Part shown: piece after piece, positions 1 through 33,988 of the stretch
How positions within the stretch are numbered: the stretch's first letter is position 1
How the letters are laid out: every line of letters starts with the position of its first letter
From: Paraspadella gotoi
Taxonomy: Eukaryota > Animalia > Chaetognatha
Assembly (NCBI GenBank): GCA_051294375.1
Contig: CM119269.1
Coordinates: forward strand, 17,780,265-17,844,264
Direction of reading: 5' to 3'
DNA length: 64,000 nucleotides
Notes under the pieces: generated by a model
Seen by the model: only the letters and a program-made list of their open reading frames with translations
Database searches by the model: none
What the model was told of the DNA's origin: nothing
Position numbers and translations under genes: made by a program

Positions 1-640
1 TCGATCTTTTTTTCATATTTCTTTAGATACAAAAGGTAGCGCTAGCAGTCGCTCAGATTCCAGGTTCAGCAAAATTAACAAAATGTCCCAAGTGTCTCGA
101 ATGTTGCGAACTAGTAACTACTATTCTACAGGGTAGTGATTCAAAACTTTGAAAATCCCTAACACTCGTGACGCATTAAATATTTCTAAAGAGATTTATT
201 CATTTGTTCTCTTTAGAATTTTTCTTTTAGCATAGAAATGAGCATAATATTAGTTTTGGGTATATGACACTTGTTGCTTGCAGCACATTTAAATTATTAA
301 TTTTATAGAACTACCGGAAAGATAAATTCATATATTTTGCTATCTCCTTTATCATGTTTATTTATATTTTTATTGACACAATGCATGCAAATTTCAAATG
401 AGGAGGGATTTTTATTTTGAAAATCGATCAAAAAAATTAGTTGATAATGAATTTATAATAATGAACTGCTTTAGGTAAAAAAATTAATTGTCCATTAAAG
501 CGTAGAAAAAATATTAAAATCAATTAGAATCAAAATTCGAATAGTGGATCATGCTTGTACCTGTGAACATTTTTAAATAAAAAATATTTTGAAGAGACAG
601 TAATTATTGTTATATGTTAGTGACAGAACCGTTCAATATA

Positions 641-716
641 AGCAGTCCCTGAGCTTCGGATCAGGCTGTAACACCATGTTACAGGCGGGTTAAGCGCCCC
701 GTCCCTCTTAACTGCC
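641..716 (-). ncRNA. Twister ribozyme-like motif, type P5 (family A)
   Basis: Minus strand reads GGCAGTT-aagagg-GA-CGG-ggcgct-TAA-CCC-GCC-tgtaaca cca tgttaca-G-CCTGA-TCCGAAGC-TCAGG-GACTGCT. P5, P3, P4, L4, T1 (CCG/CGG) and T2 (GC/GC) can all form. P2 is one nt short. Predicted U/A cut between 692 and 691. Confidence 0.75.
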
Positions 717-1059
717 AGACGACCACCGGGCAAGAACCCCGGACCTTTGGGTTGGGAGGCGAATGACTTGCCTCCGGCACCAATGGCCGCTGTGAACGGT
801 TGGTGGATTTTTAGTCCACCATACATCCCCCCTCCCGTAGGGAGAAGTCTGTTGCGTCTCTTCAGTGAATTGTTGTTGTTGTGGAAAGTTCGTCACCAAG
901 TTGAGGCATGTCGCCTGATGTGTTGTGGGCGGAAAGTGCATCACCAGGTTGAGGCATGTCGCCTGAAAGTGTTGTTGTTGCTGTTGTGTTCGGAAGTCGG
1001 GCTCACAATGAAGAGACAGTAATTATTGATATATGTTAGTGACAGAACCGTTCAATATA

Positions 1060-1135
1060 AGCAGTCCCTGAGCTTCGGATCAGGCTGTAACACCATGTTA
1101 CAGGCGGGTTAAGCGCCCCGTCCCTCTTAACTGCC
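1060..1135 (-). ncRNA. Twister ribozyme-like motif, type P5 (family A, second tandem copy)
   Basis: Same sequence as 641-716. Predicted cut between 1111 and 1110. Confidence 0.75.
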
Positions 1136-1239
1136 AGACGACCACCGGGCAAGAACCCCGACCTTTGGGTTGGGAGGCGAAGACTTGCCTCCGGCACCAA
1201 TGGCCGCTGGATGACGGTTGGTGGATTTTAGTCCACCAT

Positions 1240-1650
1240 AATTTATTATTTTTTTTCAATTTTTGCATATGCCTATATTTATACCTAGTACTCACCATAA
1301 AAAATGCTAAAATTTTAAAATGTTTTTTTCCTATTTTTGAAAGCAGAATTGAATTCCTCACAAAAAGTTGACTACAATATAACTCTTTTTAAAAAAATAT
1401 TTCATTAAGTAGGTCAAAATCATAAAAAACTATTATAGTTAACCTATAATTTAATTTTAGTATGAATAATATAGTTTTTTTTACTTTTAGCTAACTTAAT
1501 AAAATGATTTTTTATTAAAACTTATATTTTCCTATATCAACTTTTAATAAAGAATTCGAATCTGCTTTCAAAACTAAAAAAAATATTTTTTAATTTTAAT
1601 AATTTTAATGGTTTCTACTAAGTATAAATAATTAAAATATGCGTTTTATT
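1240..1650. repeat. AT-rich foldback (palindromic) interspersed repeat
   Basis: Imperfect long palindrome (aaagcagaattgaattc ... gaattcgaatctgcttt). Related copies near 10380-10917, 24420-24850 and 33000-33480. Confidence 0.6.
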
Positions 1651-2562
1651 TCGAATTCAACAAGGTTGATTCAGTACATACATGAGCAGCAAAAAAAGCT
1701 AAGATTAAAGACAAAACAAAGTTAAAGATTGCATGACACTACCACTATAGACTAAACAAAGTTAAAGTTATAGATTAAAATATTTCTATCATTAAAGTTG
1801 CAGTAGCCAACCAAATTTTAATTTTAATGGGAACAACATTAAACGAATCCATTATTGATAGTAGTTATTGTGTTAAAATATTTTTTTGCAAAAATGTTCC
1901 GAACCATGAGTAATTAGTTAACTAAAATTATAATATTGCTATTTAATGTCAAAATTTTTTTTAGATATTTTAAGTTTTTTTAATTGATTCTGATAGAGCT
2001 CAAAAAGTTAAGCAAAAAATTTATTTACAATTTTATAAAATTTTGATGTTTTATTATTAAAACTTAGCAAAAACTATTAAAATTATTGGATGATAATGAT
2101 GAGGATGATTTTTTTAGGTTTTTACTAATTTTGACCCACTTATCATCAAAATATTGAAAAAAGAATTATACTTTGTGCAGACAACTTTTCATAAACTATC
2201 TGAATCTGCTTTTAAAAATAAAAAAATTTAAAAATTTTTTAACGTTTCCTATCTATAAATAAATATTAAAAAATAATTACTAGTGCTTCTAGCCATTTTA
2301 AAAAAAATTAAAAAATTGAATTTGAAAGTTTTTTCAGAAATGTATGAAGTTTCATTTGGGAAGGTTCCCAAATCAAACTTTTGACTCACCTTATTGACAA
2401 AGTTTGACCCTAATTAAAAAATTTTTCTAACAATCTCAATAAATAAATATGGGCGTATGGTGGACTAAAATCCACCAACTGTTCATCAGCGGCCATTGGT
2501 GCCGGAGGCAAGTCATTCGCCTCCCAACCCAAAGGTCCGGGGTTCTAGCCCGGTGGTCGCCT

Positions 2563-2638
2563 GGCAGTTGAGAGGGACGGGACGCTTAACCCGCCTGTAA
2601 CACGGTGTTACAGCCTGATCCGAAGCTCAGGGACTGCT
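2563..2638 (+). ncRNA. Twister ribozyme-like motif, type P5 (family A)
   Basis: GGCAGTT...GA-CGG-gacgct-TAA-CCC-GCC-[P3]-G-CCTGA-TCCGAAGC-TCAGG-GACTGCT. Predicted cut 2587/2588. Confidence 0.72.
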
Positions 2639-2984
2639 TATATTGAACGGTTCTGTCACTAACACATAACAATAATTACTGTCTCTTCATTGGTGAGCCC
2701 GATTTCCGAACACAACAGCAACAACAACACTTTCAGGCGACATGCCCTAACTTGGCGATGCACTTTCCGCCCACAACACATCCGGCGACATGCCTCAACT
2801 TGGTGACGATCTTTCCACCAACAACAACAATTCACTGAAGAGACGCAACAGACTTCTCCCTACGGGAGGGGGGGATGTATGGTGGACTAAAATCCACCAA
2901 CTGTTCATCAGCGGCCATTGGTGCCGGAGGCAAATCATTTGCCTCCCAACCCAAAGGTCCGGGGTTCTAGCCAGGTGGTCGCCT

Positions 2985-3059
2985 GGCAGTTAAGAGCGAC
3001 GGGGCGCTTAACCCGCCTGTAACACGGTGTTACAGCCTGATCCGAAGTTTGGGACCGCT
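2985..3059 (+). ncRNA. Degenerate twister motif (family A)
   Basis: Same frame with substitutions in P2' (gagc) and P4' (TCCGAAGTTTGG). Predicted cut 3009/3010, 422 nt after the first. Confidence 0.5.
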
Positions 3060-3939
3060 TATATTGAACGGTTCTGTCACTAACACATAACAATAATTAC
3101 TGTCTCTTCAGGCGTATGCGAAAATTGATAAATTAAAAAAAATTATATATCAATGTTCTTTAGTATAAGACTATTCGAATTTTGATCTGCAACTTTCACT
3201 ACGACTCATTGTCTATGTCCAATGCACAGATTCACTGTATTCATTTGGAAAGTGTCAGTACGCTTGAGACACTTATTTTGGGTCTATAGGACGTCTTTCT
3301 GGACAAAACTGCTGACGCTCAAATCGCGACTCAGCAGAATAGTTTTGTGAAAAACAAAGAAAATTTGGCTGGCTGATTTATAACGTTATTCAATATTTCA
3401 GACTACAACTCAACTATAATATCCGAAAAACTTGACGTATTTCATCAGTTCCATCGGCCAAAGTCTCAATCGTTCGTCCGACGGTTTTTATGACCCTTTG
3501 TGTTTGTCATTCTAAGAAATCTGCCTCGGGCGAAGAAAAAACATTCTGTTCTAATGACGGTTCCAATTTTTCAAGAATTTTTTTTCTTAAGCTACAAAGT
3601 AGAGCGAGGGGTCTTCATAATAAAAGAAAATAAGAAAAAAGGTAACAAGAATAAGTAGTTCGTCGCCAGGGTTTGAACTCGGTTCCAAAGAAAAACGTTT
3701 ACGCTTTGTTAAAACAGGACATGAAAACGTAATCAAAGCTTGGTTTTATTGAGATATTGTCAAGACGAGAACGAACAATTAATTACAATTGACTCCGATT
3801 GCATATTGAATACATTTGTACAATACAATAATATACAATCCAATCATCTGATGATTACGCTCGACTCTTTTCGTCCCACAAATTCATCCGTTCAAATAGA
3901 GAGGAAAATAAATCTGCTCGGCGTTCGAATCTAGTTTAA

Positions 3940-8902: not shown

Positions 8903-14323
<5,421 letters not shown>

Positions 14324-15989: not shown

Positions 15990-32581
<16,592 letters not shown>

Positions 32582-33988
32582 GGACGCCGGTGGTGGGGCT
32601 ACTCTGCAAATTGATTTTCGATGTTACTGTCAATTGCGAATTTAGTTGTAAAAAGTGGGTTTTTATATTTAGTTTAATTTTTATATTATTTTTTATATTT
32701 GTACTTAATTTTAATACTTATTTTTTATTTAGTTTTATATAGTTCGTTTATATATTTTATATAGCATTTTTTATTAACGAGACAGTTTGAGTATTGGCAG
32801 CAACAATTTTTATTTAATAAGAAAAACATGTTTCTGCTCAGAGTTCGAGCCTTCATCGGCGTCAATTTTTATATAGTTTTGATAGTTAAATTGCCCTATT
32901 ATTTAAAATAAAGATTAGCTTTGGAAATACCATCAGCCACGTACATATTTCACAAAGCTCTCAAAGTTGAAAAATAAAGCCTAGCTAAAATATTAAAATC
33001 AAGTTGAATCAAAATTCGAATAGTAGATCATGAACAGCCTTGTACCTGTGAACATTTTTAAATAAAAAAACTTAGTTTTTTATTTTTAAATTTTTGCATT
33101 AGCCCATATTTATACATACGTTTTTTTCTTATTTTGAAAGCAGATTCTAATTCCTCACGAAAAGTTGATAAAAGAAAGTTTAACTCTTTGTGGAAAATTA
33201 TTTTATTAAAAACTATTATTTAATTAACTTGTAGTATGAAAATATAGTTTTTTCAATTTTTAGCTAACTTAAGAAAGAATATTTGATTAAGACTTATATT
33301 TTTTTTTCTATTTTTTTATGAGGAATTCGAATCTGCTTTAAAAACTAAAAAAAATATTTTAAAATTTTGACATTTTCTATGGTGAGTACTCTGTATAAAT
33401 ATGGGCTAATGCGAAAATTCAGAAGTTAAATTTTTTTTCTTCATATTTCAATGTTTTTAGTACAAGACTTTTCATGCTCAACTATTCACTAACAACATCT
33501 TTGAATAACAAAAATAAAATACGGGTAAATTGGAAAATTTTTTTTCGTTACGTTAATAATAAAGAGAAAAAACAATTTAATTTGTTGTTTGCAACCAAAA
33601 AATTTTTTTCTGCTAGTTAATTAATTATTTCATGTAATATACATGTAGGGATGAATGTTTTCACGCCTGAATTTAATGGGCCCTTGGGTCTCAGAAAAAG
33701 GCACAAAAGTTGGAGTAAAATTCGGGTAGAAAACTGGAGCGAAAAATGAGGTCGAAGAATAGGGCGAATAGGCGACAAAAAGCGCGATATTCTCAAGGAA
33801 AAAACACCATCAATTCTCAGAAAATTATCCGTCAATAAATAATAAAGAAAAACATCGAATTTCGATAAGCCTTACCCCAAAAAATGTGTTTAACCTTTAG
33901 CTGAAATATTCAATAGTTTTCAACGGAGCGTCGCGATTCCCAATGAGGGGAAACCGCGAACTCAACCGGAGACTAAAGTCGACCTCTC

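Follow-up and report, generated by a model that had tools for sequence, protein, structure and literature searches.

A 64-kb stretch of contig CM119269.1 (the whole stretch of DNA analysed, referred to here as the window) contains two insertions of a short non-coding retroelement, element A (590–1240, minus strand) and element B (2456–3110, plus strand), each organized as repeat–spacer–repeat. The repeats contain a transfer RNA (tRNA)-like head followed directly by a type-P5 twister ribozyme fold, which is intact in three of the four repeats. The repeats are long terminal repeats (LTRs). The element as a whole is a terminal-repeat retrotransposon in miniature (TRIM) that is non-coding and present in high copy number. 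We infer, with an overall probability of roughly 0.55, that it is an LTR retrozyme with an RNA polymerase III (Pol III) tRNA head and a twister, mobilized through read-through transcription, two cuts, a circle, tRNA-Trp-primed reverse transcription by a Gypsy element, and integration.

Organization of the two insertions

Elements A and B are 94% identical and both are shorter than 1 kb (651 bp and 655 bp, respectively); no third copy is present within the 64-kb window. Element B contains a 5′ LTR of 234 bp (2456–2689), an internal non-coding region of 188 bp (2690–2877) and a 3′ LTR of 233 bp (2878–3110), and the corresponding parts of A are a 5′ LTR of 232 bp (1009–1240), an internal region of 185 bp (824–1008) and a 3′ LTR of 234 bp (590–823). 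The repeats are thus 232–234 bp long with a spacing of 419 (A) or 422 (B), in agreement with the repeat–spacer–repeat unit of ~420 nt given in a preliminary description of this DNA. That description had also recognized both insertions, and these are real, although their ends are now placed at the coordinates given above.

All four repeats begin with TATGG and finish with TCTTCA, and each insertion is flanked by an exact 4-bp target-site duplication (TSD), GGCG for element B (2452–2455 and 3111–3114; chance 0.0003) and AAAT for element A (1241–1244 at the 5′ side and 586–589 at the 3′ side; chance 0.019). An 8-bp TSD, GGCGTATG, had been proposed for B, but the additional four bases are only apparent, because element B is followed by chance by TATG, the same letters with which the repeat starts. 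The termini in both insertions, and at the loose ends of the family as a whole, are TA…CA rather than the canonical TG…CA. The LTR ends (2687–2692 and 2874–2879) are compatible with removal of two bases by an integrase, with CA followed by the TT of the primer end at one junction, and at the other a TG that separates the polypurine tract from the initial TA; such trimming would explain the unusual TA terminus.

A tRNA-Trp-like primer-binding site (PBS) is situated one base past the LTR end of element B (2691–2703) and agrees at 11 of 13 positions with the tRNA-Trp PBS of Gypsy-32_NVi and Helenus-2_SyJa (PMC10886601 Fig. S2), rising to 12 of 13 with the letter that nearly all contigs read at 2703. 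The PBS of element A (1008–996) has one base absent. A polypurine tract (PPT) precedes the second repeat in both elements (836–827 in A; 2864–2875 in B, where it is followed by TG and then the 3′ LTR). The presence of a PBS and a PPT, neither of which had been recognized in the preliminary description, identifies the repeats as LTRs. An alignment of the LTRs contains five element-specific columns and no position-specific ones, which is the pattern expected when a single template gives rise to both LTRs.

The ends are also seen across the family. Contigs from host runs X1, X5 and X9 have loose ends at 2456 with mixed, AT-rich flanks (107, 68 and 18 contigs, respectively), behind 2689 (135, 100 and 36) and behind 3110 (72, 38 and 14). 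The piling of loose ends at the same points shows that the element family is large and dispersed, with fixed ends. In X1, 19,844 contigs are located on the element stretch, and run X10 (organism B) has two contigs, spanning 2629–2802 only. Summed contig depth is more than two-fold higher over the LTRs than over the internal part, which would fit the presence of solo LTRs, although depth is not equivalent to copy number. X9 may be an RNA run and is not taken as evidence of expression.

Two long-range pairings noted previously in element B are present. The first (2477–2485 with 2644–2652, including one U-G pair) is a clamp whose left strand is part of a U3-like segment of the 5′ LTR (2456–2488) that also contains a 7-bp hairpin (2458–2477); the second (2681–2689 with 2836–2844) is perfect and joins the LTR end to the internal region. 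The internal regions of both elements contain a 48-bp duplication (2733–2826 in B), with each unit carrying a TGG-led, PBS-like motif between CAA-rich unstructured runs; a packaging or spare priming signal is a possible role. No Pfam families are found in the reading frames over the two elements, and neither sense strand contains a run of four T residues.

The tRNA-like head and the twister fold

The head in the 5′ LTR of element B (2489–2560) is a degenerate 72-nt tRNA-like unit with a 7-bp acceptor-like closing stem and with motifs that resemble the A and B boxes and are spaced as in a tRNA, and is a predicted Pol III promoter; in element A the heads begin at 1207 (5′ LTR) and 790 (3′ LTR). 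A tRNA-head descriptor built on a box consensus is matched by two of the four LTRs and by 12 of 5000 shuffles. Among the variants listed for the family, three fall within the closing stem (2490, 2557 and 2560) and each of them retains the pair via G-U, which is weak support because transitions tend to preserve pairs in this way. Against a tRNA-derived promoter are the failure of both LTRs of A to match the descriptor, an imperfect B box, and the absence of a tRNA call by ARAGORN or Rfam.

The twister fold begins just beyond the head (2563–2638 in the 5′ LTR of B) and has the type-P5 order, with every slot of the Schistosoma mansoni twister table filled: P5 (2563–2569/2632–2638), P2′ and P2 (2572–2575/2590–2592), GA (2576–2577), T1′ (CGG) and its partner (2578–2580/2620–2622), the P1 linker (2581–2586), UAA (2587–2589) with a predicted cut after 2587, the GC of T2 (2593–2594/2625–2626), an 8-bp P3 (2595–2613), a 5-bp P4 (2614–2618/2627–2631), and the L4 loop UCCGAAGC (2619–2626). 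A relaxed twister descriptor permitting all three permutations is matched by three of the four LTRs, by nothing else on either strand of the 64 kb, and by two of 20,000 dinucleotide shuffles. UAA at L1, GA before T1′, an L4 of the form U-NNN-AA-GC, T1 (3 bp), T2 (2 bp) and P4 are all present in three of four LTRs, with T1 formed by CCG/CGG as opposed to CCC/GGG in the S. mansoni table. The succession of a tRNA-like head and a type-P5 twister described previously is upheld by the descriptors and by slot-by-slot reading, with neither part called by ARAGORN or Rfam.

Both LTRs of element A have an intact twister core, with predicted cuts after 1111 (5′ LTR) and 692 (3′ LTR), and the piece between them is 419 nt. 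The corresponding piece in element B (2588–3009) has the 422-nt length proposed previously for a released monomer, but a cut at 3009 is unlikely, given the lesions in P2, P4, P5 and T2 of the 3′ twister of B.

Departures from canonical twisters

Several observations weigh against an active twister, beginning with the dead-looking fold in the 3′ LTR of B. The search with Rfam twister models proposed in the preliminary description gave no match, with Twister-P5 (RF02684, gathering score 37.6) not matching the 91 bases concerned even at E values up to 10. Scans of the whole window, of 500–3200, and of two 91-base stretches against Rfam reported neither twister nor tRNA, and the matches to small nucleolar RNAs were far under gathering scores; a hammerhead match was likewise absent from the window and from the elements. 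Twister-P5 scores 46–56 bits on 7 of 12 control loci, and seven natural twisters of type P5 from viral contigs (L006–L008 and L010–L013) were used as controls. The consensus of the model includes a P1 of 8 bp but lacks a P3 hairpin. By score, the element belongs neither to Rfam Twister-P5 nor to the hammerhead retrozymes.

The helices are also atypical. P2 has a 3-nt strand and forms three pairs around a bulged A instead of a 4-bp helix, and P1 in the monomer is a single G-U pair instead of at least 2 bp, extending to 6 bp only if two LTRs pair with each other. In the three intact LTRs the active skeleton is 6.3–7.9 kcal/mol above the nested minimum, compared with 0–3.0 kcal/mol in the seven natural P5 twisters (computed without pseudoknots or Mg2+), because a competing hairpin occupies T1′, P2 and T2. 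No two-sided covariation is visible in the family, and T1 is disrupted by the variant 2622 G>A, which accounts for 13, 3 and 4% of depth. A further variant, 2602 A>T, leaves the last position of P3 unpaired, and G2576, A2577, UAA and GC are untouched among the 40 variants listed.

Natural twisters examined in a high-throughput test withstood defects such as bulges or deletions in P1, P2 and P4, but not those affecting pseudoknots or catalytic bases (PMC11662667). The three intact LTR twisters fit this pattern, with defects in P1 and P2 but intact pseudoknots and catalytic bases, and we consider it quite probable that the predicted twister is active in some form.

Alternatively, the element could be a plain Helenus-type TRIM using the normal LTR route and containing either a captured twister-like fold that has since lost activity, or a hairpin with a GCGC loop for RNA dimerization. 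This seems unlikely. The lack of an Rfam match, the 3-nt P2 strand, the absence of a real P1, the competing hairpin, the damaged copy at 2878–3110 and the missing covariation would all be accounted for, but all catalytic and pseudoknot positions are kept in three of the four LTRs together with a T1 unlike that of the S. mansoni table, the catalytic bases are unvaried among the listed variants, and a second class of ribozyme occupies the same spot in Helenus elements of wasps (see below).

Pattern scans for relatives gave 0, 0 and 3 loci in viral contigs, the three being without an Rfam match, and none in prokaryote genomes. Five metagenome-contig loci from the pattern scan were all chance matches as judged by BLAST and folding.

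Proposed mechanism of mobilization

As an LTR retrozyme, the element would be transcribed by Pol III from the tRNA head of the 5′ LTR, with read-through across the 3′ LTR in the absence of a T4 run. Both twisters would then cut at U/AA, probably aided by LTR–LTR pairing through the self-complementary P1 linker, so as to yield a 419–422-nt RNA with no terminal redundancy. P5 and the U3 clamp would hold the two RNA ends in proximity for joining, either by a host ligase of the RtcB type or by the ribozyme; P5 has a pairing probability of 0.99–1.0 in the predicted circle of A. A tRNA-Trp-primed Gypsy reverse transcriptase would proceed more than one round of the circle, thereby forming two LTRs and rebuilding the promoter, and the Gypsy integrase would trim two bases per end and insert the product with a 4-bp TSD.

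On this model the family likely spreads via an RNA circle of ~420 nt, with a Gypsy element as its likely mover. Plant LTR retrozymes have the same layout, make circles, are cut at both sites, and have been modelled with Gypsy-type copying round the circle (PMC4918200). The core of the preliminary description (a non-coding retroelement with a tRNA head and a twister, a unit RNA released between cuts, and a promoter restored by reverse transcription) fits this anatomy, but the twister is imperfect. Also against the model is the absence of a Gypsy partner from the window, with Pfam searches of 139 of the 191 frames of at least 75 amino acids finding neither reverse transcriptase nor integrase.

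The twister could instead function only in forming a 3′ end. Pol III would again begin at the tRNA head, but the 5′ twister would mostly misfold in a transcript lacking the U3 clamp and only the 3′ twister would cut, leaving a linear RNA whose 97–99-nt terminal repeat would allow the usual strand transfer, as in Cassandra, and making a circle unnecessary. The 3′ LTR of element A behaves accordingly (P5 pairing probability of 1.00 with U3 and 0.38 without), and the element has no T4 terminator, whereas many Helenus LTRs carry a T run after the tRNA. However, the effect of U3 is weak or absent in other LTRs (0.35 versus 0.12, and 0.38 versus 0.45), the gap to the active skeleton is almost unaffected by U3, and both sites are cut in the plant LTR retrozymes (PMC4918200), such that 3′-end formation alone appears improbable.

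The preliminary description placed the element with tRNA short interspersed nuclear elements (SINEs) and Sm-alpha, and a 1.5-mer tandem of this kind (a non-LTR retrozyme that used target-primed reverse transcription to insert and thereby produced an 8-bp TSD) is now largely refuted and very improbable: GGCGTATG does flank element B and Schistosoma has SINE-like repeats combining a promoter and a ribozyme, but TATG is part of the repeat in all four LTRs and is not duplicated at A (the chance of the extra four bases being 0.006), the ends are fixed family-wide, and the PBS and PPT found here are absent from animal non-LTR retrozymes as described in the available text of PMC7229834. The PBS, PPT, 4-bp TSD and sharp ends are those of an LTR-type element, and the appropriate models are the plant LTR retrozymes and Helenus rather than an Sm-alpha-like tandem.

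A minimal P1 and a possible double twister

Three LTRs, and 90–99% of family depth, have GGCGCU as the linker joining T1′ to UAA. This hexamer amounts to a single G-U pair with the palindrome GCGC as its cap, and a 6-bp duplex can form between two copies. Axolotl hammerheads similarly have one pair and a palindromic tetraloop, and cut efficiently only as dimers (PMC7229834). From the likeness of P1 to these amphibian dimer-cutting hammerheads, the P1 linkers of the two LTRs may pair to form a double twister, an analogy that provides a testable hypothesis rather than a result. The active dimer skeleton is predicted at -54.5 kcal/mol, compared with -42.8 kcal/mol for two active monomers. Opposing this are two misfolded monomers (-58.2 kcal/mol) and the best nested dimer (-69.4 kcal/mol), both below the active dimer, and the ~5% chance of a self-complementary 6-mer.

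A more extended proposal is that the element is an LTR retrozyme of animals, headed by a Pol III tRNA-like promoter, whose two twisters can cut only after forming a double twister around a shared 6-bp P1 contributed by the palindromic linkers of both LTRs. Circles would then be released only from two-LTR transcripts and not from solo LTRs, and the element, together with the hammerhead-bearing Helenus of wasps, would belong to a so far overlooked group of animal LTR retrozymes with tRNA heads and interchangeable ribozymes. We regard this combination as tentative and rather doubtful.

Relationships to known elements

The name Helenus was given by Kojima (2024; PMC10886601) to TRIMs that have a tRNA-like segment in the LTR and a TSD of 4 bp. 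The element described here resembles animal Helenus in being a TRIM of less than 1 kb with a tRNA-like LTR sequence, a PBS for a tRNA 3′ end, a PPT and a 4-bp TSD, and has the tRNA-Trp primer in common with Helenus-2_SyJa and Gypsy-32_NVi (PMC10886601). It differs in having a predicted ribozyme, a feature that the available text of PMC10886601 does not describe (twister is not mentioned, and "ribozyme" is present only in the reference list and not in the supplement), in starting with TA and not TG, although some Helenus consensus records also start with TA, in lacking a T run after the tRNA head, and in a host that is remote from named animal proteins (~41% identity). Five motifs of the family have no matching record among the Helenus records available. 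Pol III transcription is unproven for Helenus itself, according to the available text of PMC10886601.

In two Helenus LTRs of Synergus wasps (Helenus-2_SyJa-LTR and Helenus-2_SyUm-LTR; PMC10886601 Data S1), a complete type III hammerhead is visible by eye immediately after the tRNA head, again with a tRNA-Trp primer; the available text and supplement of that paper do not mention a ribozyme in them. The position of this hammerhead suggests that the combination of a tRNA head and a ribozyme has arisen more than once in animal LTRs.

Similarities with the plant LTR retrozymes (Cervera 2016; PMC4918200) include the non-coding character, a ribozyme in each LTR, a PBS, a PPT, a 4-bp TSD, Gypsy-type ends and a structured unit between the cut sites; here, A has the ribozyme fold in both LTRs and B has one intact and one damaged. 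The plant elements have a type III hammerhead and a tRNA-Met primer, whereas the present element has a predicted twister, an animal host, a tRNA-like head, tRNA-Trp and a shorter unit (~420 nt). Circles have been demonstrated for plant retrozymes (PMC4918200) and are predicted here. Metazoan non-LTR retrozymes, including Sm-alpha, similarly have a small unit, an animal host, a tRNA-derived part (in Schistosoma) and a minimal helix with a palindromic tetraloop (in amphibians), but are described as lacking LTRs, PBS and PPT and as having longer TSDs, type I hammerheads and a Penelope link (available texts of PMC7229834 and PMC6765202). The twisters of the S. mansoni Perere-3/RTE elements have the same core slots, a similar P3 and a weak or absent P1, and are also located inside a retroelement, but are single type-P1 ribozymes at the 5′ ends of non-LTR elements (PMC8501958, PMC7761336), whereas here the P5 permutation is present twice, within LTRs. 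The Cassandra TRIM shares an LTR Pol III promoter and a transcript ending in the 3′ LTR, Pol III being only predicted here, but is 5S-derived, found in plants, and without a ribozyme (as summarized in PMC10886601).

Retrozymes have been divided into plant LTR elements with type III hammerheads and animal non-LTR elements with type I hammerheads (PMC7229834; 2026 preprint, bioRxiv 10.64898/2026.07.22.740005). No twister in an LTR element, no animal LTR retrozyme and no Helenus ribozyme is described in the literature searched, which left most subscription journals and Repbase notes outside. The novelty is likely a Helenus-like TRIM predicted to work as an LTR retrozyme, in an animal host and with a twister instead of a hammerhead.

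Other features of the window

A dispersed AT-rich repeat with inverted ends, resembling a miniature inverted-repeat transposable element, is located between A and B (1258–1630) and again at 24407–24719 and 33120–33438. Tandem arrays are present at 17757–18634 (period ~75 bp) and 21852–22264. Two genes are recognized from leftwards-transcribed exons, a pyrimidine 5′-nucleotidase gene (11079–12551) and a glutamate-transporter gene (24955–25164). The transporter exon is 80–83% identical to two proteins that are themselves only ~41% identical to named animal proteins, indicating that the host belongs to a divergent animal lineage that has been little sampled.

Implications

If the LTR-retrozyme reading is correct, a twister-bearing animal LTR element breaks both rules by which retrozymes have been divided, the restriction of LTR elements with type III hammerheads to plants and of non-LTR elements with type I hammerheads to animals. 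The twister would gain a role in making the circle of a retroelement, and the defined ends of a Pol III TRIM without a terminator would be explained. The minimal P1 offers a cheap and direct way to ask whether the twister works as a natural dimer. Because Rfam misses twisters of this kind, more of them may be hidden in repeat libraries.

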